From an uncultured Chloroflexia bacterium (GTDB lineage: Bacteria; Chloroflexota; Limnocylindria; Limnocylindrales; CSP1-4), in assembly GCA_963748625.1 (NCBI GenBank), contig CAVVJT010000004.1, positions 32,001 to 96,000 of the forward strand: 64,000 bases of DNA. The letters are read 5' to 3'. The position numbers were made by a program, and so were the translations under genes. The notes below the pieces were generated by a model. The model had not been told where the DNA came from. It ran no database searches and worked only from the letters and a program-made list of their open reading frames with translations. Shown in pieces: positions 47,816-59,217 of the stretch (position 1 is the stretch's first letter; every line of letters starts with the position of its first letter).

Positions 47816-48931
47816 TCAGTCCATCAGCTCCCGGCGCGACCAGCCATCGCCCCGGTTGTTGGAGTAGTAGATGCCGGGATCCCCGGCCATGCGCATGTAG
47901 GCGAGGTGGACGACGCCCGACGGACCCATCCCGGTGCTCGGATACATCGCCCATTCGCGCACGATCGTGCTCCGCGTCCACGTGCCGGACGCGTTGGTGG
48001 CCATGTAGATGCCCCGCCGGTCGTCGTCGTCGACGCGCGTGTAGACGATCCAGATCGCGCCTGTCCTCGAGCGCTCGATGTTGCCCCAGCGACCCTCCGG
48101 GGCCACCCGCCGCGTGACCCACGAGCCCGAGGAGTTCGTCACGTAGAAGGTGCCGAGCGGGAGATCGGGCTGGGCCTGGGAGTTGTACTCGCGTCCGAAG
48201 GCGACGTGGACCTTGCCCGCCGGGTCGACGACCAGCCCCATGGCGTGGTCCTCCGAGTCCGTCGAGATCAACTCCGTCACCCATGTGCCGGAGGCGTTGG
48301 TCTGGTACTGGATCCCCGCCTTGTCGCACACACCCGGCACCGTCTCGTGGCACTCCTCGAACAGGAGGTGGACCGAGCCGCCGGGCCCAAGGGCGATCTC
48401 GGCGTGGTTGCCCAGGCCGGTGTCGAGGCGCCGCCGTACCCACGTGCCGCTCTCGTTCGTCGCGTACCAGCTCTTCTCGTCCGTGTCCCACGCGATGTGG
48501 AGATTGCGATCGCCGTCCACGACGACCCGGATCTTGTAGGCATCGTCATGGACAACCGGCAGCTTCGTGCGGACCCATTCGCCGGACCGGTTCGTCAGGA
48601 GGTGGTGATTGACATCGTCCCCCACCTCTCGCTCGAACACGATGTAGACCTTCTGGTTGGCGTCGACTGCGATGGCGTGCGGGGTGTCCTTCGACGTCGT
48701 GAGGCGGCGGCGTGTCCACGTCTCGGTCTTGTTGGTGGCGTACACGATGCCGGGCGACCCGGCGTGCCGGTACACGACGTGGGTCTCGTTGAGCCTGTCG
48801 GTGACCAGGTAGGGCTGGATCGGATCGCACGCGCAGGTGTCGGCCGCAGCGGGCACAGGCACGGCGAGCGCCCCGAGGAGCAGCGCTGCCAGGAGCGCGA
48901 GCAGGCGGACTGGTGAGCGACCCCTGGTCAC
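47816..48931 (-). CDS. Secreted beta-propeller repeat protein
   Basis: GGAGG RBS, signal peptide, about 7 repeats of D..G..H......Y.TN.SG.W. Confidence 0.75.
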   Translation of the reverse strand: MTRGRSPVRLLALLAALLLGALAVPVPAAADTCACDPIQPYLVTDRLNETHVVYRHAGSPGIVYATNKTETWTRRRLTTSKDTPHAIAVDANQKVYIVFEREVGDDVNHHLLTNRSGEWVRTKLPVVHDDAYKIRVVVDGDRNLHIAWDTDEKSWYATNESGTWVRRRLDTGLGNHAEIALGPGGSVHLLFEECHETVPGVCDKAGIQYQTNASGTWVTELISTDSEDHAMGLVVDPAGKVHVAFGREYNSQAQPDLPLGTFYVTNSSGSWVTRRVAPEGRWGNIERSRTGAIWIVYTRVDDDDRRGIYMATNASGTWTRSTIVREWAMYPSTGMGPSGVVHLAYMRMAGDPGIYYSNNRGDGWSRRELMD

Positions 48932-48995
48932 GGGCGACCTCCACACATGCTGGACGCGGTTGGAGCCTACCATGCGGGCTGCACCGGTCCGGGCG

Positions 48996-49235
48996 TCAGT
49001 CCGTGGCCTCGTCGATGGAGCGCATCCGGACCTGGTACTCGGCGGGGCTGATCTCGCCCGCGGCCATCCGGCGGCCCAGCTCCGCCCGCGCAACCTCCTC
49101 CGGCGAGGGCCGCGAACGCCGGATCGCCCAGACGATGACACCGACGATCAGCACCGTGGTGCCGACGGTCACGGCGAGCGAGCCGACCACGCTCAGGATG
49201 GTGATCCAGAAGACCCAGTCGAGATTGACGTCCAC
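48996..49235 (-). CDS. Small membrane protein with SHOCT domain
   Basis: TM segment plus ELGRRMAAGEISPAEY. Confidence 0.7.
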   Translation of the reverse strand: MDVNLDWVFWITILSVVGSLAVTVGTTVLIVGVIVWAIRRSRPSPEEVARAELGRRMAAGEISPAEYQVRMRSIDEATD

Positions 49236-49316
49236 GGATGGGACGATAGCGGTCACGTCAAGGCCGTGGCGGAGACGGGCCACCTTCGGTCACGGGGTTC
49301 CGGTCAGGGCGTCCGG

Positions 49317-49832
49317 TCAGGGCAGGCCGCCACTCCAGCTGGTGCCGCCGCTGATCACCGCTCCGTCAGCGAAGGTCAACTCCACATCGGCCTCCCCTGC
49401 CGTCTCCGTGCATGGGACCGCCGTGCATGTCACCTTGACCCCGACGATCCGCTTGGACGGTGGGGCCTGGTCGACCTGCTGATCGGCCAGGGCCTGGCAC
49501 TCCGCGAGCCCGAGCTTCACGCAGGCAGGGCGCGGCACGGGCGCCGGATCCCCGGCGTAGGTGAACGCGTCGATCACCTTGGCTCCATCGCGCAGCGTCA
49601 CGACCGCCGTGCCCGATCCACCCTTGCGGTCGCATACGGGGACCCCGCACGACACTTCCACGTTCGTGGCGCCGGGATGCCGGGCACCGGCAAGGTCGAT
49701 CTGCTCGCTGCAGACGCCACCGGGCACATCGGCACACGAACCGCCCAGGCCGGAGCTCGTGCTGACGAGGGCACAACCCGCGAGGGCGACGGATGCCACG
49801 AACAGCGCGACCCGGAGCCCCCACCCGGTCAT
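49317..49832 (-). CDS. Cys-rich putative lipoprotein with internal duplication
   Basis: LAGC lipobox; two C-x7-C...C-x4-C repeats. Confidence 0.7.
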   Translation of the reverse strand: MTGWGLRVALFVASVALAGCALVSTSSGLGGSCADVPGGVCSEQIDLAGARHPGATNVEVSCGVPVCDRKGGSGTAVVTLRDGAKVIDAFTYAGDPAPVPRPACVKLGLAECQALADQQVDQAPPSKRIVGVKVTCTAVPCTETAGEADVELTFADGAVISGGTSWSGGLP

Positions 49833-49836
49833 CCGC

Positions 49837-51060
49837 TCAGGCCTCCAGGACCAGGACGTCCTTGGGGAAGCGCGTGAGCTGCCGCAGCGAGCGGGCAGCG
49901 GCGTCGAGATGGACGAGATCCTCGATCCGGACGCCCGTCTCGCCCTCGAGGTAGATGCCGGGCTCCACGCTGAACACCGTCGAACCGGGGAGCGGTGTCT
50001 GCGGCGCCCGGCGCGACAGGCTCGGCTCCTCGTGGGTCGCGAGGCCGATGCCATGCCCGAGGCCGTGCCCGTACGGTGCCCAGCGGCCGTCAGCCTCGAT
50101 CACGGCACGGGCGACGGCATCCACCGTCCGGCCGTCGGGGAGCGCGACGCCGCCCTCGGCGGCCGTCCGGATCAGCTCGATCGCCGCCGCCTGGGCCGCG
50201 GCGACCGTCTCATACACCGCGAGGTCCCGGGCTGACGGCTCGCCGATGAACAACGTCCGGGTCATGTCGCTGCGGTAGCCCTCGACCTGCGCCCCGAAGT
50301 CGAACAGCAGCACCGCACCCGCCAGGACCGGCCGGTCGCCGGGCGCACCGTGCGGCAGCGCCGCCTCGGGCCCGGCGAGACATGCGACATCGAACGCGAG
50401 GGCCTCGGCGCCCCCGGTCCGGATCAGCCACTCCAGGCGCAGCGCGAGGTCATGCTCCGTGACCCCTGGTCGGATCTCCGGCAGGAGCGCCGCGAGTGCC
50501 CGGTCCGCGACGGCGCAGGCCGCCTCGATCCGCTCGATCTCGTCGGGTGTCTTGACCGCGCGCATCGCCTCGATCCAGCCGTCCACCGGGACGAGCTCCA
50601 CGTCCGGCGCTGCGGCGGCGAGGCCCTGCCAGAGCAGGTGCGGGACCGCGGACGCCTCGACGGCAACACGCCGCGCACCCGCCCGGGCCACGAGGTCGGG
50701 CCAGGCCGCCTCCAGGTCATAGCCGATCTCGTCGATGCGGGCGTCGGGCGCCTCGCGACGTGCCTGGATCGTGTACCGCGAATCCGTGATCACGGTGACG
50801 TCGTCCGGGCCCACGACGAACTTGCCGGAGTGGCCCGCGACCTTGTCCTCGCCGGCACCGAGGGTGAACCCGGTCAGCCAGCGCATGTGCTCGGGCTTGA
50901 CGCCGAGGTAGGCGTCGACGCCCTCGGCGACCATCCGCTCGCGCAGGCGCCTGAGCCGGTCCGGCCGATGGGCCTGCTCGGCCTCGCGCCAGCCAGCACG
51001 GGTCGCCGCGTCGGGCGACACCGGGAAGTCGGCTGGAGTCGGAAGGACGGACCGCGTCAC
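49837..51060 (-). CDS. Xaa-Pro aminopeptidase (M24B)
   Basis: DFGA, YRSDMTRT, HGLGHGIGL..HE, EPGIY, GVRIED motifs. Confidence 0.92.
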   Translation of the reverse strand: MTRSVLPTPADFPVSPDAATRAGWREAEQAHRPDRLRRLRERMVAEGVDAYLGVKPEHMRWLTGFTLGAGEDKVAGHSGKFVVGPDDVTVITDSRYTIQARREAPDARIDEIGYDLEAAWPDLVARAGARRVAVEASAVPHLLWQGLAAAAPDVELVPVDGWIEAMRAVKTPDEIERIEAACAVADRALAALLPEIRPGVTEHDLALRLEWLIRTGGAEALAFDVACLAGPEAALPHGAPGDRPVLAGAVLLFDFGAQVEGYRSDMTRTLFIGEPSARDLAVYETVAAAQAAAIELIRTAAEGGVALPDGRTVDAVARAVIEADGRWAPYGHGLGHGIGLATHEEPSLSRRAPQTPLPGSTVFSVEPGIYLEGETGVRIEDLVHLDAAARSLRQLTRFPKDVLVLEA

Positions 51061-52448
51061 CGCGAGTTCTTGCCGTACTTCGCGACGTTCTTCTGGTGCT
51101 GGGCGAGGGTCTTGGCAAACGCGCTGGAGTCCGTGCCGTCACCCTTCGCGATGAAGAACAGGTAGCCGGCCTTCGTGTTCGGCGCGAGAGCCGCGTCGAT
51201 CGACGCGACGGATGGCGAGCAGATCGGGGACGGCGGCAGACCCTTGCTGGTGTACGTGTTGTAGCCGGCGATCCGCTTGGGCAGTGGCACGGGGAGCTGG
51301 TACCCCTCCGGCAACGAGTCCCAGAAGACGTACTTCGTCCACTCCTTGATCTTCATCTCGTCGAGCTTGAGCGTGTCGTGCGTGTAGAAGATCGTCGGGT
51401 CGGACTCGAGCAGGCCCGTCGCCCACATCTTGGGGTTGAGCCGGTTCTGGTAGACCCCGGCGATGAGGGCGCGCTCCTCGTCGAGAACGGCCTCGCGCTC
51501 GACGATCGAGGCGAGGATGAGGATCTCGTAGAAGGTGAGGCCGCGCTTCTCGGGCACAGCCATGCGCTCCGGGCCGACCTGGTCATAGAACGCATTGAGC
51601 ATCATGCGGATCAGGTCATCGGCGGTCGTGGGGCTGGCGCTGTCGATCCGCAAGGTGTACGTCGCCGGGTACAGGAACCCCTCGAGTGACGCCCCCTTGG
51701 GCCGGACGTCCTCGACGAGAATCCACGGGAAATCGCCCAGAATGGAATCCGGCGGATCCATGGCCAGCTTGTAGAACTCGGCGGGATCGACAGCGGAGTC
51801 GATCGTTGCGAGCTTGGCCGTCATCTGCTCGATCCTAAGTCCCTCGCGGAACGTGACGTCGAGCGTCTGGATGACGATCTTGTTCTCGACCAGGCCTGTG
51901 ACGACCTCGGCCGGCGTGAGGTTGGCGGCCAGGCGGTACCTCCCGGCGTCAAGCCGGCCCGCGAGGCCGGCCATCAGGGCCTCGAAGAGGAAGGCCCGCT
52001 CGCTCGTGATGATCCCCTGCTCGACGAGACGGGGCGCGAGGGCGGCCGGCGTGTCACCGGGCTCGACCGTGAACTCGATGGTGGCGGGGCTGATGCCCGC
52101 GGGCCGCGTCAGCTCGCCATCGAGCGCCTCCCGGTAGAGGTCTGCGACGAAGCCGATCCGCAGCGCCCCAGGGTTGCCCTCCGCCCACGGGACGACGAGT
52201 GCGCGCGTCAGTGGCCGTGCGACGGTCGTCAGGACCACGAGCACGGCGACCGCGAGGATCGCGAGGAACAGGATGAAGCGCAGGATGCCGCCCCGCCCGC
52301 GCTGGTCGCCGTAGCGCTCGTAGCGACGCTGGTCGCCCGGTCCACGTCCGTAGCGACCGGTGCGCTTGTAGCCATTGGGCCGCCGCTGGTCCGCGTCATC
52401 CGGGACGGCCATCGGCTCGCGCGCGCTCCGTCCGTTCCTGATGCTCAT
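51057..52448 (-). CDS. mltG: Endolytic transglycosylase MltG
   Basis: N-terminal TM, LEGFLYPATY, LASIVERE, GVYQNRL, LESDPT, YNTY..GLPPSPI. Confidence 0.93.
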   Translation of the reverse strand: MSIRNGRSAREPMAVPDDADQRRPNGYKRTGRYGRGPGDQRRYERYGDQRGRGGILRFILFLAILAVAVLVVLTTVARPLTRALVVPWAEGNPGALRIGFVADLYREALDGELTRPAGISPATIEFTVEPGDTPAALAPRLVEQGIITSERAFLFEALMAGLAGRLDAGRYRLAANLTPAEVVTGLVENKIVIQTLDVTFREGLRIEQMTAKLATIDSAVDPAEFYKLAMDPPDSILGDFPWILVEDVRPKGASLEGFLYPATYTLRIDSASPTTADDLIRMMLNAFYDQVGPERMAVPEKRGLTFYEILILASIVEREAVLDEERALIAGVYQNRLNPKMWATGLLESDPTIFYTHDTLKLDEMKIKEWTKYVFWDSLPEGYQLPVPLPKRIAGYNTYTSKGLPPSPICSPSVASIDAALAPNTKAGYLFFIAKGDGTDSSAFAKTLAQHQKNVAKYGKNSR

Positions 52449-52924
52449 CGGGACTCCTGCGTGTTGGCGGACAGTCCGCCACGGCGGGCATCCAGCTCGT
52501 CCTGGAGGATGACGCTCGCGGCCTCGCGATCGATTCGCGCCCGGAACGCGTTTCGCTGGGTCCGTGATGGGGCACCGCCCGATCGCCCGCGCGGCATGCG
52601 GCCCAGCCGCTGCTCGGCCTCGAAGGAGCTGAGACGCTCATCGCGCAGCGTCACGGGAAGCGCCAGGCGCTCGCCGATGGCACTCGCCCACTGGCGTGCG
52701 GCTGCTGCCATCTCGCCCTCATTGCCCCTGGCCTCGATGGGCAGGCCCACCACGAGCTCGGCGATGCCCTGCTCACCGCAGATGCGGCCCAGGACCGCCG
52801 CGTCGGCCTCGAGCGTGTCGCCGCGGTTCACCGTCTGCAACGGCCGAGCGATCCCGACGCCCGCGTCGGCCACCGCGATCCCGATCCGGCGCGAGCCCAG
52901 GTCCACGCCCAGGATCCGGCTCAT
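52445..52924 (-). CDS. ruvX: Holliday junction resolvase-like RuvX (YqgF)
   Basis: LGVDLGSRRIGIAV, VGLP, DERLSS, ID..AA..ILQ motifs. Confidence 0.93.
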   Translation of the reverse strand: MSRILGVDLGSRRIGIAVADAGVGIARPLQTVNRGDTLEADAAVLGRICGEQGIAELVVGLPIEARGNEGEMAAAARQWASAIGERLALPVTLRDERLSSFEAEQRLGRMPRGRSGGAPSRTQRNAFRARIDREAASVILQDELDARRGGLSANTQESR

Positions 52925-53017
52925 GCGCGCGTCACAGCACACCGCCGACGGGCATCGACGGGTGGCTCGCGACCGGACGCGGCATGGCGCGACCGGGGAC
53001 TGCATTCGACTGGGGCA

Positions 53018-54829
53018 TCAGCCCGATGGTAGCGGCTCCTCGGCAGGCCCGCCGTTGGCGGGGTCCGACGCGTCAACCGGGTCGTTCACGATGACCGTCA
53101 CCCGCTGCTCGAGCGTGGGCACGGTCGTGACGAACCCGGGCCAGAGCTCCACGGAAGCCTCGCCATACCCGGCGAGCGCTGCCTCGGCCTCCTCCTGGGT
53201 CATGCCGAGCACCATGGCCTCGATGGCCGCGGCGTCCACGGGCACCACCTGCTTGGCCGAGACCGTCGCCTGGAACGTCACGGTGCCGTCCTCGTCGACG
53301 GTCCCATCGCCCACCGTGATCTCGGTCGAGCCCTCCACCAGGGTGGCGCCGTCGGCCACGAGCGCGTCGAGCTGCTGCGCAGCAAGCGCCTCGATGGGCG
53401 TCGTGTCTACCGCCAGCACCGTGCCGGTGGCGGTCATCACCAGCGTGAACGACTCCACCTCCTGGCCGACGAGCAATGCCGGATCCTCCGTCGGGGTCGC
53501 CTCGCCGAGCACGGCGGTGTCCGGGTAGGCCGTGTAGCCCGGCGGCACGCGATCCGCGTTCTCGACCTCGGTCTCGAACGTGGCCTCCAGGTCCTGCGCC
53601 AGGGTCGCGAGCGCGCCTTCGACGTCCTTCTTGGAGATGCGCGTGTAGCTGGTCTCGCTGCCGCCCGTGGTCTCGACCTGGTTGGTGACCCGCAGCACGG
53701 TGCGGTTGTACCGCGCCGGCACGATCCGGATCGTCCCGGCGGCAACGTTCCCTGTCTCACCGGGCTTCACCGCGGTCACGGCCACCTGGCTGGACTGGCA
53801 CTTGAGCTCGGGAGTGGTGCCGCCCCCGGAGATGATCGCGACGGGCAGGAACACGGACTCGTCGAGCGAGAAGGCGACACCGTCGGCGGTGCGGACCTGG
53901 GTCGCCCTGGGGATCGTGTAGGCCGCCGTGGGATCGCAGTTCGTCCAGCGCACGGCCCCGGTTGCGGGGGTCTTCTCGACGCGCTTGCCGGTGGCCGGGA
54001 AGTCCCCGGACGCCTCCACTGGGATCTCGATGACCTCGGCCGGGATCGTGAGCGCCTCAGCGTCGACGCTGGGTGCGTCGGGATCAGCGGTCACCGTGAG
54101 CGAGACCGGGCCCACAGGCTCGATCTGCGGCGTGACGGTGATGGTCGCGGACGGCAGGAACAGGTAGGCGGCGACGCCGGCGATCCCCAGCGCAACGACG
54201 AGGACCAGGATGCCGGCGATGAGGCCCGCCGGCACCCGGCGGCGCTTGCGCACGACAGGTGGGGCCGCGGGGCGGGGTGCAACGGGGGCTTCACGACTGC
54301 GCTGGACGACGGCATCAAGCCGTGCGGCCTCGTCGGGGGTCTGTGGCCGGGCCGCCGAGCCTGCTGCGACGCCGGTGGCGAAGCCCGCGACAGCGCCCGC
54401 CGGCTGCGCGCCGGCGACACCCTGGCCTCGCGGCACCGTGAGATCGTCCGAGTGGCCTGCACCTGCGCCTGATGCGGCTCCCGCGACCGCCGCCGACCCG
54501 GCGATTGCCGCCGCTCCGCCGATCGCCGTTGCTCCGTCCTCGCCGCCCGCCGGCATGGCGAGCGCTGCCTCGTACTCCCCCACCGAGCCGAACACCGGGA
54601 TCCCCGCTGACGCCGCGAGCGCTCGTGCGGACGCGTCGGGAGCGACGATGTCGAGGCGCCGGCCCTCACGCATCGCCTCTCGGGCGAGCAGCCGGAAGTT
54701 GATGCGCGATGTGGCCACGCGGGAACCGAACGGGACCACCAGCGCCACCCGCGTGTCCGGGGCATGGCGGATGCGCATCGCGGCCGAGGTGATCTCGTCC
54801 TCCGGGTCGAGGTAGACGATCGTGGGCAC
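53018..54829 (-). CDS. Single-pass membrane protein with baseplate J/gp47-like extracellular domain
   Basis: Cytoplasmic alpha/beta N-domain, Ala/Gly linker, KRRR plus TM, then ATGAV..IP..T.V..G..F..V.A..PG..GNV.AG.I..V.N..TGG barrel motif. Confidence 0.7.
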   Translation of the reverse strand: MPTIVYLDPEDEITSAAMRIRHAPDTRVALVVPFGSRVATSRINFRLLAREAMREGRRLDIVAPDASARALAASAGIPVFGSVGEYEAALAMPAGGEDGATAIGGAAAIAGSAAVAGAASGAGAGHSDDLTVPRGQGVAGAQPAGAVAGFATGVAAGSAARPQTPDEAARLDAVVQRSREAPVAPRPAAPPVVRKRRRVPAGLIAGILVLVVALGIAGVAAYLFLPSATITVTPQIEPVGPVSLTVTADPDAPSVDAEALTIPAEVIEIPVEASGDFPATGKRVEKTPATGAVRWTNCDPTAAYTIPRATQVRTADGVAFSLDESVFLPVAIISGGGTTPELKCQSSQVAVTAVKPGETGNVAAGTIRIVPARYNRTVLRVTNQVETTGGSETSYTRISKKDVEGALATLAQDLEATFETEVENADRVPPGYTAYPDTAVLGEATPTEDPALLVGQEVESFTLVMTATGTVLAVDTTPIEALAAQQLDALVADGATLVEGSTEITVGDGTVDEDGTVTFQATVSAKQVVPVDAAAIEAMVLGMTQEEAEAALAGYGEASVELWPGFVTTVPTLEQRVTVIVNDPVDASDPANGGPAEEPLPSG

Positions 54830-54832
54830 GGA

Positions 54833-56095
54833 CTAGACCTTCATCGCGCGCAGCACGCGGCGCAGCGCGGTGTCGAGGGGATCCTCGGTCGTCTGGAGCT
54901 CGATCGCCTGCCAGGCGAGGCCCAACGGCGTGACGTCCTGCTGGTCCACGAGCAGGTGGGTCGCGTCGGATATGGCATCGACCTGGTCCGGGGCCATGAT
55001 CGTCACCTCGGGTGGGCGGGCGAAGGGAAGGCTCTTCCAGAACCGCTCTCCGGCGAGCGCCTCCTTGACCTCGGGGAGCCTGGAGCCACCACCGCAGAGG
55101 TAGATGCGGGACGGGAGCATCTCGCCCGCCGCCAGCTCCTCCATGACAAGCTCGACCCCGGCAGCCCACACCGCGGTGTCGTCGCCGACGATCTCCTGGA
55201 CGTCCTCGCGCTCACGCATCTGCAGGCCCCGCGCGTAGTCGACCTTGAGGGCTTCCGCCCGCGGGAACGGCAGGTCCATGCGGTCGGCGATGGACTTGGT
55301 GAATGCCCGGCCGCCAAGGGCGAACATGCGGGTGCCCTCGATGCCACCCTGGCGCACGAGCGCGACGTCCGTGGTCCCACCCCCGACGTCAATGAACAGG
55401 GCGCCCGACTGGCGCACGTGGTCGGCTCCCAGCACCCGGGCCACGGCATATGGCTCGGCCACGATCTCGAGCAGGTCGAGGTCGAGCTGGCTCGCGACCG
55501 ACTGCAGCGCACCAAGATGGACGAGCGGGGCGAAGGCGTTGAAGATGCCGATCCTGACGTGGCGGCCCTGGAACCCGACCGGATTCGTGAGGCCGTAGCC
55601 GTCGATGGACGCGCCCACCACGGCGCTGTGGACCAGCCGGACATCAACGTGTGGCAGGCCCGTCTCCCAGGTGATCGAGCGCTCGGCCTCGATCAGTGCC
55701 TCGCGCTGGACCGAGTCGATGAGCTTGACCAGCTCGCCATCGGTGATGGGCACCTCGGGCTTCTTGCGCTCCTGGGTGAGCGTCGTGGTGAAGCCCTTGA
55801 CGAGCTCGCCGGCGATGCCGATGACCACCTGGGTGGGCCGGAAGCCGGCCATCTCCTCGGCCTCCTGGAGCGCCACGGCGCAGTTGTCCACCACCGCCGC
55901 GATGTCCGCGACGGTGCCCGACTGCATGTGGGACAGGCCCTGCCGCTGGCGGCCGACGCCGCGCACCGTGCCATGCCCCGTCTCGTCGATCTCGAAGACG
56001 AGGGCCTTCGCGAACTCGGTCCCGATGTCCAGCGCCGTGCACGCGGCGGGGACGGGGCCCTCGTCGCGGTTCAGGATGCGGCGCAGGAACGACAT
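54833..56095 (-). CDS. FtsA-like actin-superfamily ATPase (not in dcw cluster)
   Basis: LDIGTE (phosphate 1), AEPYA, IDVGGGTTD (phosphate 2), LCGGGS (adenosine). Confidence 0.85.
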   Translation of the reverse strand: MSFLRRILNRDEGPVPAACTALDIGTEFAKALVFEIDETGHGTVRGVGRQRQGLSHMQSGTVADIAAVVDNCAVALQEAEEMAGFRPTQVVIGIAGELVKGFTTTLTQERKKPEVPITDGELVKLIDSVQREALIEAERSITWETGLPHVDVRLVHSAVVGASIDGYGLTNPVGFQGRHVRIGIFNAFAPLVHLGALQSVASQLDLDLLEIVAEPYAVARVLGADHVRQSGALFIDVGGGTTDVALVRQGGIEGTRMFALGGRAFTKSIADRMDLPFPRAEALKVDYARGLQMREREDVQEIVGDDTAVWAAGVELVMEELAAGEMLPSRIYLCGGGSRLPEVKEALAGERFWKSLPFARPPEVTIMAPDQVDAISDATHLLVDQQDVTPLGLAWQAIELQTTEDPLDTALRRVLRAMKV

Positions 56096-56130: not shown

Positions 56131-58920
56131 TCACGCCCGCGCGACCAGGTCCGCCACCGCGGCACGCACGGCCGTGATCGCATCCCCGAGCCCCTCGCGG
56201 CGGGTGCCCTTCCCCTGGGCCATCTGCGGGCGTCCGCCGCCACGGCCATCGATGCCGGCCACGGCACCCTGGACGAGCGGACCCGCCGCGATGCCACGCG
56301 CCACGAGGTCGTCGCTCACGGTGACGAAGATCTGCGGCTCGTCGGCATCGAGGCCGACCGCGATCACGCCTGACGGCAGCGACCCGCGCATGTCCTTGGC
56401 GAAGCCCTTGAGCTCGTCGATGCCCTCGAGGTCGAGGATGGCGCCGGCGAACAGCACACCCGGTGCGAGCTCCTCGGCCTTGGCCGCGACCTCGCCCGGC
56501 TTGGGTCGGCCGCCGGCCGCGGCGCCCGCCTTGAGCCTGCGCTTCGTCTCGCGGAGCTCGTCCTGGAGGGACTGGATCCGGTCCTCCAGGGCCTCGGGGC
56601 CTCGTGCGGCGACGGCGACTGTCGCCCGATCAAGTAGGGCGAAGCGCTCCTCCATGAGACGGTCCGCACCGGCGCCAGTCACGGCCTCGACCCGGCGCAT
56701 GCCCGAGCCGATGCTCTTCTCGCTGGTGATCACGAAGTTGCCGATCTGCCCGCTGGCGCGGCAGTGGGTGCCGCCGCACAGCTCATGGCTGAAGCCTTCG
56801 ACGCGGATGGTCCGCACCCGCTCACCGTACTTCTCGTCGAAGAAGGCGTCGGCGCCGGCGGCCTGGGCCTCGGCCATGGTCATCCACTCGATGCTGACCG
56901 GCCGGTCCTCGCGGACCGCCTCGCGGACCTGCCGCTCGATCGCGAGCTTCTCGTCGTCGGTGAGCCCGCGGTCGAACGGGAAGTCGAAGCGCAGGTAGTC
57001 CGGGTGGACCAGCGAGCCCGCCTGGCGCGCCCGCTCCCCCACCACGTTGCGTAGGGCCCGATGCAGCAGGTGCGTGCCTGTGTGGTTGCGCATGATGTGG
57101 GCCCGGCGCTCGGCGTCCACGACGCCGGCCACGGTCTCGCCGACCTGCACGCGGCCGCGCAGGACGCCGCGATGGACGGTGAGGCCTGCGGTCTGGGTGC
57201 CGGCGACGCGCTGGACATCCTCCACCTCGAGCAGGACGGTGCCGTCGTCCGAGGTGATGACGCCAGTGTCGGCGACCTGGCCGCCCGACTCCGCGTAGAA
57301 GGGTGTCTCGGCGAGAACGATCTCCACGCGTCCGCCAGACCCGGCCGCCGAGACCGCCTCGAGCGAGTCGTACTCGGTGCCGTCGCGCAGGATCGCGACA
57401 ACCTGGCCATGGGCGGTGGTGGTCTCGTAGCCGAGGAACCGGGTGGCCGCCGTGCGGGCAAGGATCTCCTGGTAGCGCGAGGCGGCGAGGTTGACGTCGG
57501 TCAGGCCGGCCTTCGTGTTTGCCCGGCTGCGCTCCCGCTGCTCCGCGAGCGCGTCCTGGAAGCCCGCGAGATCGGTCCGGACGCCGTACTCGGCCGCCAG
57601 CTCGACGGTGAGGTCGATCGGGAAGCCGTAGGTGTCGTGCAGGCGGAACGCGATGTCGCCTTTGAGGATCGGCGCGTCGGCCGGCAGGTGCTCCGCGGAC
57701 TGGCCCACCACGCGGGGCTCACTGGTGAGCGCCTCCAGGGCGTCCTCCAGGAGGCCGACGCCGGCCTCGAGGGTCCGGTTGAACTGCCTGTCCTCGCGCT
57801 CGATCACGGCGAGGATCTCGTCGCGGCGCTCGAGCAGGTTGGGGTAGGCGACGCCCATGGTGTCGATCACGACCTTGGCCATCTCGCCCAGGAACGGCTC
57901 GTGCCAGCCGAGCAGCCGCCCGTGGCGGATGGCCCGGCGCATGATCCGGCGCATGACGTAGCCGCGACCCTCGTTGGACGGCAGGACGCCGTCGGCGGCG
58001 AGGAACGTGACCGCGCGGCTGTGGTCCGCGATGACCTGGTAGCTGAAGCGCTGCGCTTCGAACGTGTCAGGATCGCTGCCGAGCAGCTCGCGCATGCGGG
58101 CGTGGAGCGGCGCGAACAGATCGGTGTCGTAGTTGGTCGTCACGCCCTGGACGACGCTGGCGATCCGCTCGAGGCCCATGCCGGTGTCCACGCCGGGGGC
58201 CGGCAGCGGGGTCAGGCTCCGGTCGGGATGGAGCTCGAACTCCATGAAGACCAGGTTCCAGACCTCCAGCCACCGCGGGCAGTGCTCGCTGTGGTCAGGA
58301 ACGCATTCCGGGCCCTCGGAGAGGTGGACGCCGCGGTCGTAGTGGAGCTCCGAGCAGGGGCCGCACGGACCCACGTCGCCCATGCGCCACCAGTTCGCCT
58401 CGTCACCGGCCGGGAAGTCACCCCAGCGCACGAGCCGCTCCGGGGGCAGCCCGATCTCGTTCTTCCAGACGTCGTGCGCGAAGTCGTCGGTCGAGTAGAC
58501 GGTTGCCGCGAGACGGTCGGCCGGGATCTGGAGGTCCTGCGTCAGGAACTCCCAGGCCCAGTGGATGGCCTCGCGCTTGAAGTAGTCGCCGAAGCTCCAG
58601 TTGCCGAGCATCTCGAAGAGCGTGTGGTGACGCGGTGTGCGCCCGACCTCCTCGAAGTCGTTGTGCTTGCCGGCGACGCGCAGGCAGCGCTGGTAGTCCA
58701 CCGCGCGGACGTAGTCCCGCTTCTCCACGCCGGTCAGGGCGTCCTTGAACTGGACCATGCCGGAGTTCGTGAAGAGCAGGGTCTGGTCACCCGCCGGCAC
58801 GAGGCTGGCGCTGGGCACGACAGTGTGGCCGCGCGCCGCGAAGAAGTCGACGAAGCGCTGGCGGACCTCCGCGGCGGGGAGGAAGGGAATGGTCGGGTCG
58901 GACGGACTCTGGGTGGACAT
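56131..58920 (-). CDS. alaS: Alanine--tRNA ligase
   Basis: LLFTNSGMVQFK, FEMLGNWSFGDYFK, GPCGPCSE, DTGMGLER, HTGTHLLH, ELCGGTH, GGGRPQMAQG. Confidence 0.97.
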   Translation of the reverse strand: MSTQSPSDPTIPFLPAAEVRQRFVDFFAARGHTVVPSASLVPAGDQTLLFTNSGMVQFKDALTGVEKRDYVRAVDYQRCLRVAGKHNDFEEVGRTPRHHTLFEMLGNWSFGDYFKREAIHWAWEFLTQDLQIPADRLAATVYSTDDFAHDVWKNEIGLPPERLVRWGDFPAGDEANWWRMGDVGPCGPCSELHYDRGVHLSEGPECVPDHSEHCPRWLEVWNLVFMEFELHPDRSLTPLPAPGVDTGMGLERIASVVQGVTTNYDTDLFAPLHARMRELLGSDPDTFEAQRFSYQVIADHSRAVTFLAADGVLPSNEGRGYVMRRIMRRAIRHGRLLGWHEPFLGEMAKVVIDTMGVAYPNLLERRDEILAVIEREDRQFNRTLEAGVGLLEDALEALTSEPRVVGQSAEHLPADAPILKGDIAFRLHDTYGFPIDLTVELAAEYGVRTDLAGFQDALAEQRERSRANTKAGLTDVNLAASRYQEILARTAATRFLGYETTTAHGQVVAILRDGTEYDSLEAVSAAGSGGRVEIVLAETPFYAESGGQVADTGVITSDDGTVLLEVEDVQRVAGTQTAGLTVHRGVLRGRVQVGETVAGVVDAERRAHIMRNHTGTHLLHRALRNVVGERARQAGSLVHPDYLRFDFPFDRGLTDDEKLAIERQVREAVREDRPVSIEWMTMAEAQAAGADAFFDEKYGERVRTIRVEGFSHELCGGTHCRASGQIGNFVITSEKSIGSGMRRVEAVTGAGADRLMEERFALLDRATVAVAARGPEALEDRIQSLQDELRETKRRLKAGAAAGGRPKPGEVAAKAEELAPGVLFAGAILDLEGIDELKGFAKDMRGSLPSGVIAVGLDADEPQIFVTVSDDLVARGIAAGPLVQGAVAGIDGRGGGRPQMAQGKGTRREGLGDAITAVRAAVADLVARA

Positions 58921-59045
58921 CGGGCCAATGGTAGCGAACGGGGTCCCACTCGACCGGACTGGGTCCGGCGGGTGCCGCCAGCCCCGGCGGTCCCGGCGGC
59001 CTCGGCGGCCTCGGCCCACGACCGTCGCACCCTGGAGGCGGGTCT

Positions 59046-59217
59046 CATCCGCAGGAGGATGGTCTGGCGCATTCATCCGTGCAGGAATGGAATCCGAGGA
59101 GTGCGTGCAGGGCTCAGGGCCAGAGGTCGGGGTTCGGCGTCTGACCCCCGTACGGCCGGGGCGATTCTGATCCGCACCGGGATTGTTGGCAGATTCGATC
59201 CGCGCAGGGATGGAATC
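59046..59217. repeat. REP-like cluster of four palindromic motifs
   Basis: ATCC-N6-G(G/A)AT(GGAATC) motifs near 59046, 59074, 59169 and 59197. Confidence 0.55.

Follow-up and report, generated by a model that had tools for sequence, protein, structure and literature searches.

Why would an ATPase of the FtsA type, with no other division gene close by, be followed within three nucleotides (nt) by a membrane protein whose outer part holds a barrel known from phage baseplates, and why would both sit in a run of housekeeping genes? The question is raised by a 64,000-nt stretch (the window) from an uncultured Chloroflexia bacterium of the Limnocylindrales (GCA_963748625.1, contig CAVVJT010000004.1, positions 32,001 to 96,000). 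The ATPase, here called FtsAL, is a 420-residue actin-like protein of the FtsA fold (54833..56095, minus strand), as judged from its open reading frame, Pfam and NCBIfam matches, a tree and a structural model. Its partner, bpJ (53018..54829, minus strand), is a bitopic membrane protein of 603 residues, N-in/C-out, recognized from its reading frame and from profiles. The two same-strand frames lie exactly where an original prediction, made from the sequence, had placed them: 3 nt apart, inside the alaS-ruvX-mltG run. The pair is probably an old, undescribed cell-envelope module. Taking the whole analysis together, we lean somewhat towards the view that FtsAL and bpJ form an ancient two-protein transmembrane envelope module of monoderm-type bacteria, namely the Chloroflexota, the bacteria of the CPR (Candidate Phyla Radiation, also called Patescibacteria) and some Bacillota. 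A functional link between the two proteins is very likely, because they are adjacent, inherited together and, in one set of loci, fused.

FtsAL is a paralog of FtsA

FtsAL is a paralog of FtsA, distinct from the FtsA of the divisome. It matches the Pfam family FtsA (PF14450, E 4.4e-16) and scores 104.9 bits against the NCBIfam model ftsA (TIGR01174), under the cut-off of 175.85; the canonical FtsA of the same genome scores 404.6 bits. The canonical gene lies on another contig (C10) between a gene for an FtsQ-type POTRA protein and ftsZ, and the genome has two true mreB genes elsewhere. It is because these established genes lie elsewhere that FtsAL is to be regarded as a paralog, and the orphan status proposed for it in the original prediction is borne out. 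Score, separate clade and position away from ftsQ and ftsZ all put it outside the TIGR01174 equivalog. In a quick maximum-likelihood tree of 65 rows, 18 rows of canonical FtsA (SH-aLRT 99) and 42 rows of FtsAL (26 from Chloroflexota, 16 from CPR; SH-aLRT 90) form separate groups, both on long stems; PilM is represented by two rows only (L325 and L326), and an extra row from the window's own genome and L324 are MreB. FtsAL does not belong to the PilM family, since it reaches 20 bits against PF11104 (cut-off 27) and 29.5 against TIGR01175 (cut-off 133), and no pil genes are nearby.

The relationship to FtsA extends over the entire protein. Profiles of 42 FtsAL orthologs and of 17 canonical FtsA proteins from the same phyla align (hhalign) at 99.96% probability (E 4.9e-39, 378 columns, 22% identity), end to end, including the C-terminal tail and the 1C region, where FtsAL 93-171 falls on FtsA 79-144. 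FtsAL thus follows the FtsA order of subdomains, in which the insert takes the 1C (SHS2) position and not, as in MreB, the 1B position; the Pfam model SHS2_FTSA itself gives no match. An AlphaFold model of FtsAL (pLDDT 91.7, pTM 0.89) found FtsA chains as its best matches in the PDB (7q6i_B, E 6.5e-33, TMq 0.75), with PilM (TMq 0.56-0.65) and then EutJ and MreB (TMq 0.44-0.50) below them, and so the structure search also agrees with an FtsA kinship.

The actin-fold motifs announced for this gene are intact, and the ATPase core has its phosphate-1, phosphate-2 and adenosine motifs. DIGTE, DVGGGTTD and GGGS are all present; D23, D236, G238 and G335-G336 are each found in 42/42 orthologs, and the nucleotide-binding residues overall in 40-42/42. 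A motif specific to the family, W..LPF...P, is likewise conserved. Amphipathic ends had been claimed as well, and here only one end stood. The C-terminal 11-mer is amphipathic and mostly basic in most of the 42 orthologs, and the model has a helix at 406-417; the N-terminal end is short, variable and unconserved.

bpJ combines a cytoplasmic domain without detectable homologs and a barrel shared with baseplate proteins and GlxA

The layout foreseen for the second gene was found: a compact N-domain, a low-complexity linker, one transmembrane segment and a large acidic ectodomain that contains a barrel. The cytoplasmic N-domain (residues 1-92; 54554..54829, minus strand, delimited by sequence pattern) is conserved, with strand and helix alternating by sequence. 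An Ala/Gly/Pro-rich linker leads to an RKRRR patch and the single transmembrane segment at about residues 203-225 (together 54155..54553, minus strand, read from the sequence). The ectodomain, of net charge -37, includes the barrel (residues 284-392; 53654..53980, minus strand; Pfam, PHROG and PDB profiles) and a C-terminal part that is conserved in the family alignment (residues 393-603; 53018..53653, minus strand).

The N-domain is present in a single copy in the genome and has no detectable homolog in Pfam or among PDB sequences by profile search (best E 0.059), nor a usable match in the protein atlas. When its profile was searched among near-length proteins only, 345 short proteins were found, the named ones all 'partial'; Dormibacterota came up there in a single protein name. 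It is unrelated to the C-terminal part of bpJ, and a profile of the C-terminal ectodomain (210 residues) found nothing significant among PDB sequences (best E 0.07). The invariant columns of the ectodomain are Pro and Gly, and the near-invariant ones are mostly Gly, Ala and Pro, which suggests a scaffold rather than an enzyme.

To call bpJ a baseplate-J-domain protein, as had been done, is right for the barrel and for little else. Residues 284-392 match Pfam Baseplate_J (PF04865) with 27.5 bits, above the cut-off of 21.1, over profile positions 18-111 of 255, and 38/58 family members match the same model. The barrel also matches PHROG 6 'baseplate wedge subunit' (5.3e-11), and the PDB chains that the family profile finds are those of gp47, ORF62, TRI-2, the wedge protein gp31 and a triplex protein labelled 'Baseplate J family' (E 3e-7 to 1e-4). 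The remaining baseplate-J architecture had no match in bpJ in the Pfam and PDB profile searches. The same barrel segment matches the Pfam family PF21110 'GlxA beta barrel domain' in 9/58 family members, and the family profile finds the PDB entries 4unm, 5lqi and 5lxz, each a 'Secreted protein', at 2.5e-6. Barrel-only matches occur in Streptomyces-type genomes, in frames of about 650 residues. There was no tblastn match to bpJ in 50,697 phage records, nor a relative of the single protein in viral contigs. What phages share with bpJ is, by these profile comparisons, only the barrel and not a whole baseplate-J protein. The further proposal of a 'domesticated phage baseplate fold' keeps its kernel, the profile kinship of the barrel; it is overstated because the Pfam match covers only about positions 18-113 of the 255-position model, the same segment matches the GlxA barrel, and the phage records gave no tblastn match.

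A role in anti-phage defence was rejected: bpJ matched none of the PADLOC defence models, and FtsAL reached only 13.2 bits (E 0.0065), which does not make it a defence protein. The genome does hold a true tail-type Baseplate_J gene, on contig C10 (549482-550006, 648 residues, 52 bits), followed by a Tail_P2_I gene, in what is a prophage or a tailocin-like element.

Distribution of the pair

The original prediction mentioned similar pairs in Chloroflexota and Patescibacteria, and these are real. In the close relatives, titled Chloroflexota or Limnocylindria/Limnocylindrales, the order alaS-FtsAL-bpJ-ruvX-mltG is found in 80/80 loci, with identities to the window of 76-91% for FtsAL, 36-61% for bpJ and 58-85% for alaS. 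Among 301 sampled Chloroflexota genomes (tallies that include four flagged as unpublished: G038, G173, G227 and G272), the bpJ profile matches 223, or 186/244 of the high-quality ones. FtsAL, called at full length and at least 140 bits, clearly apart from canonical FtsA at 73-87 bits, is present in 92/301, and 92/92 of these also have bpJ. In 40 diverse Chloroflexota loci bpJ lies between alaS and ruvX, with FtsAL directly upstream in 31. The slot can also be empty: in 8/8 loci from Chloroflexota families with MltG and without bpJ, alaS is followed directly by ruvX-mltG. MltG itself occurs in 264/301 genomes. Families without MltG also lack bpJ, as f19 does (0/9 and 0/9), and among the 20 MltG-negative genomes listed only one has bpJ, at a contig end.

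CPR genomes, sampled by way of a 16S primer (TM7), have bpJ in 192/201 cases by a first profile (a count that includes the unpublished G459) and in 148/151 by a wider one, the genomes of the latter sample spanning 0.4-2 Mb. The whole cassette, with FtsAL directly upstream of bpJ, is seen in 17/25 CPR loci, 8 of the 25 having been picked for long frames. Canonical FtsA was present as well in 5/5 CPR genomes checked (0.7-1.1 Mb). In the 8 CPR loci picked for long frames the slot holds one protein of 716-783 residues that joins a degenerate FtsAL domain to a bpJ ectodomain. Compared with the FtsAL profile, the cytoplasmic part of this protein gives 98.6% probability (E 6.2e-16, 223 columns); it is a reduced FtsAL that lacks both the 1C insert and the nucleotide motifs. 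A sortase gene (PF04203) stands between the fusion gene and ruvX in 8/8 of these loci (L289-L296).

In the Bacillota group (the phylum group of Bacillus testis) bpJ matches are found in 24/101 genomes, 17 of them strong, and bpJ lies between alaS and ruvX in 13/16 loci; relatives of these loci are titled 'MAG: Bacillota bacterium'. Actinomycetota gave matches in 4/101 genomes, three barrel-only and one partial. Cyanobacteriota had no full-length bpJ and barrel-only matches in 3/101 genomes, and Armatimonadota had no bpJ in 101. A profile search across 1.84 billion representatives brought up 7,484 proteins with E values no higher than 1e-30. All of 48 FtsAL-bpJ pairs are on one strand, with a median gap of 13 nt. 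Co-occurrence, an order shared across groups and the fused forms together make the pair co-conserved, as a neighbourhood survey was expected to find if the two belonged together.

FtsAL is also the most constrained member of the run. Between the window and 11 CPR loci the identities are 44-52% for FtsAL, 33-40% for AlaRS, 27-34% for MltG and RuvX, and 22-30% for bpJ; canonical FtsA, compared between the window's genome and CPR, is 35-40% identical (5 pairs). On these identities FtsAL evolves more slowly between phyla than FtsA or AlaRS.

Several further bpJ genes were seen. Many CPR genomes have a second, shorter paralog of 377-421 residues, an ectodomain without the N-domain (e.g., L483:3954-5120). 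Its slot is again a housekeeping one, next to a class II synthetase that has a tRNA_SAD domain: of 12 loci (L480-L491), 10 have a threonyl-tRNA synthetase-type gene to one side, and 10 have a gene for DNA polymerase III alpha, which lies on that same side or within two genes. In Bacillota-group loci L462-L474 the gene between bpJ and ruvX encodes an aldo/keto reductase that carries a fused 4Fe-4S ferredoxin domain (3/3 proteins scanned, with similar N-termini in 11 loci). One Chloroflexota bpJ frame continues into ruvX (L127:7818-9989, 723 residues), by fusion, frameshift or assembly error; one member of the bpJ alignment matches Pfam RuvX (8.5e-36) and is taken to be this frame. The gene also occurs in records titled 'Bacillota bacterium' (G506, 1.4 Mb) and 'uncultured Gammaproteobacteria' (G509, 0.8 Mb), both of which match the TM7 primer; the titles look wrong, because genome grouping puts G506 with the Patescibacteria.

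The surrounding genes

On the minus strand the order is alaS, FtsAL, bpJ, ruvX, mltG, a gene for an M24 peptidase and, further on, efp. The slot is flanked upstream by alaS (56131..59076, minus strand) and downstream by ruvX (52445..53005, minus strand), and the conserved run ends with mltG, or YceG (51057..52448, minus strand), all three assigned by Pfam and synteny. The spacing is tight, with 35 nt from alaS to FtsAL, 3 nt from FtsAL to bpJ, 12 nt from bpJ to ruvX, and a 4-nt overlap of ruvX and mltG. The window also holds xseA, mnmA, a class-V aminotransferase gene and three open reading frames without Pfam matches. As had been noted originally, fts, pil and phage genes are absent: a Pfam scan of the window found none within about 8 kb of the pair. 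G+C content is even along the locus.

The three Pfam-less frames lie between efp and the peptidase gene (47816-49141, 49317-50054 and 48996-49283, all minus strand), and may be a local insertion, since efp is often close behind the peptidase gene in relatives. One of them, 441 residues long, contains a hydrophobic stretch resembling a signal, and its repeats of the unit 'V.Y..N.sG.W' have a beta-propeller-like look.

Comparison with known systems

How might such a pair work? FtsAL would bind ATP and be held to the inner face of the membrane by the amphipathic helix at its C-terminus, perhaps in oligomeric form, like FtsA, PilM or MreB. There it would engage the cytoplasmic N-domain of bpJ, and bpJ would relay the state of FtsAL through the membrane to an ectodomain that is presumably no enzyme and is made of the barrel and two further parts. 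This ectodomain may contact peptidoglycan, some polymer of the wall or one of its enzymes, for instance MltG, whose gene is probably transcribed together with bpJ. An actin-fold ATPase coupled to a single-pass adaptor would thus organize an extracytoplasmic process, as in FtsA-FtsN, PilM-PilN/GspL and MreB-RodZ.

The likeness to FtsA-FtsN (7q6i, Vibrio maritimus FtsA with FtsN 1-29) lies in fold, subdomain order, 1C-type insert and C-terminal tail helix, and in the presumed pairing, at the membrane, of an actin-fold ATPase with a bitopic partner directed outwards to the wall. FtsN has a short cytoplasmic peptide and a SPOR ectodomain, whereas bpJ has a folded cytoplasmic domain of about 90 residues and a barrel ectodomain; FtsAL, for its part, differs in its paralog clade, its score under the TIGR01174 cut-off and its place outside the dcw cluster. 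PilM-PilN is similar in that an actin-fold protein and its single-pass partner also exist as one fused chain. In GspL the chain is fused in this way and nucleotide-free, and the fused CPR forms, too, have lost the nucleotide motifs. Against this, PilM is only the second-best fold match, and no pilus or secretion genes are near FtsAL-bpJ. RodZ has a small cytoplasmic domain, a linker, one transmembrane segment and a beta-rich outer domain, a layout that bpJ repeats; MreB, however, is a weaker fold match, the genome has its two true MreB genes, and the bpJ N-domain has no sequence similarity to anything in the PDB.

For the barrel there are two sets of relatives. The baseplate J, gp47 and wedge 'triplex' proteins (PF04865; 9ki1_H, 9euf_C, 8v3w_E, 8kea_b, 9g8s_C) share with bpJ one barrel of about 100 residues, but bpJ is membrane-anchored and cellular, in a housekeeping context. 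In the other set, 4unm/5lqi/5lxz and PF21110, the barrel belongs to a protein that is, like bpJ, cellular, anchored in the membrane and extracytoplasmic, but with an oxidase domain that bpJ lacks; 4unm we take to be GlxA. Passages of PMC11022532 describe GlxA as working with a glycan synthase.

Weighing the explanations

A wall or envelope role is most likely for the pair. The signs of it are indirect: the ectodomain itself, a position next to mltG, the lack of the pair in lineages that have no MltG, and the sortase gene adjoining the fused forms. A loss of wall-synthesis genes in Dehalococcoidales and SAR202 is described in part of PMC10608941. Several observations weigh against the two-protein envelope module. 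Of the bpJ-positive Chloroflexota genomes, 131/223 have no FtsAL, and in the Bacillota group FtsAL is directly upstream of bpJ in only 2/16 loci, the other 14 being without it. Loci without FtsAL mostly keep the N-domain, so that the N-domain may have another partner. Distance matrices of FtsAL and the N-domain correlate at 0.41 over all 37 loci, a value that does not discriminate, and within Chloroflexota FtsAL correlates with MltG (0.39) a little more than with the N-domain (0.35). The mltG adjacency is weak evidence because the alaS-ruvX-mltG genes are functionally unrelated. MltG does not need bpJ, as MltG-positive families without it exist (f2 0/2, f6 0/4, f16 0/12, f25 0/6). As probably just one or two related lineages make up the MltG-negative genomes, the shared absence of MltG and bpJ amounts to few events. 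The frequency of bpJ without FtsAL points to bpJ, not the ATPase, as the core of the cassette, which may be able to work without FtsAL.

Could FtsAL instead be a second division FtsA that brings bpJ to the septum, in the way FtsA does for FtsN, with the pair adjusting how the septal wall is made or cleaved? FtsA is the nearest family in both fold and sequence, the top match is an FtsA-FtsN complex, the 1C-like region is retained, mltG is adjacent and databases label the protein 'cell division protein FtsA'. We nevertheless find this unlikely: FtsAL lies away from ftsZ and ftsQ and forms its own long-stemmed clade, bpJ is frequent without it, and canonical FtsA is kept even in the smallest CPR genomes checked for it. 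The idea overlaps with the envelope module, the sole difference being the place of action. An assembly platform of the PilM-PilN/GspL type, serving a surface fibre, secretion or a sortase-dependent anchoring machine, would account for the split and fused forms, for PilM as second-best fold and for the sortase gene that adjoins every fusion gene. It is improbable nonetheless, as the window has no pilin, secretin, ATPase or sortase gene for such a machine, CPR genomes have a separate PilM, and the sortase adjacency is seen in the fused lineage only.

Still less probable is that bpJ and FtsAL are independent housekeeping genes held together by operon inertia. The unrelated functions of the surrounding genes and the many genomes with bpJ alone would fit; the 8 fused loci, the unbroken co-occurrence (92/92) and an order and strand that three groups of phylum rank have in common speak against it. 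Least of all do we credit an origin as the leftover of a baseplate from a prophage, a tailocin or a contractile injection system, a reading that is rejected and close to refuted. The barrel matches to Pfam, PHROG 6 and PDB baseplate chains are its support, but they cover about 100 residues; no other tail gene is nearby, the phage records gave no tblastn match and the viral contigs no relative, PADLOC has no match for bpJ, the locus is even in composition, the true Baseplate_J gene of this genome is elsewhere beside its Tail_P2_I gene, and the housekeeping slot is conserved across phyla. A bolder extension of the envelope module, which we rate as rather doubtful, would make the pair a third system of the envelope built on an actin-like protein, alongside divisome (FtsA) and elongasome (MreB), so far unrecognized, derived from a common ancestor of Chloroflexota and CPR (perhaps of wider Terrabacteria) and nearly indispensable in CPR. 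In it a membrane-bound FtsAL polymer would position bpJ, whose ectodomain would set the sites at which glycan strands come free or polymers of the surface become attached.

Concluding remarks

A full-text literature search found no description of the FtsAL-bpJ pair, and no paper in which alaS, ruvX and mltG are named together; 'FtsA' and 'baseplate' are both absent from the main texts, supplements aside, of PMC10633639 and PMC6744442. In databases the ATPase is 'cell division protein FtsA' and its partner 'hypothetical' or 'baseplate J/gp47 family'. Because of these labels, surveys of division genes may count FtsA twice and prophage finders may be misled.

The gene content of CPR/Patescibacteria is about 400-1500 genes. 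Most sampled CPR keep FtsAL beside canonical FtsA, in addition to the near-universal bpJ. Retention in such small genomes, together with the slow change of FtsAL, points to a basic cell function. A sister relation of CPR and Chloroflexota is reported in part of 10.1101/2020.07.15.205187, and a shared cassette in a shared slot fits with it. If the third-system reading were true, the shared insertion between alaS and ruvX would be a rare genomic marker for that relation. The pair could be tested in the genetically tractable Saccharibacteria.

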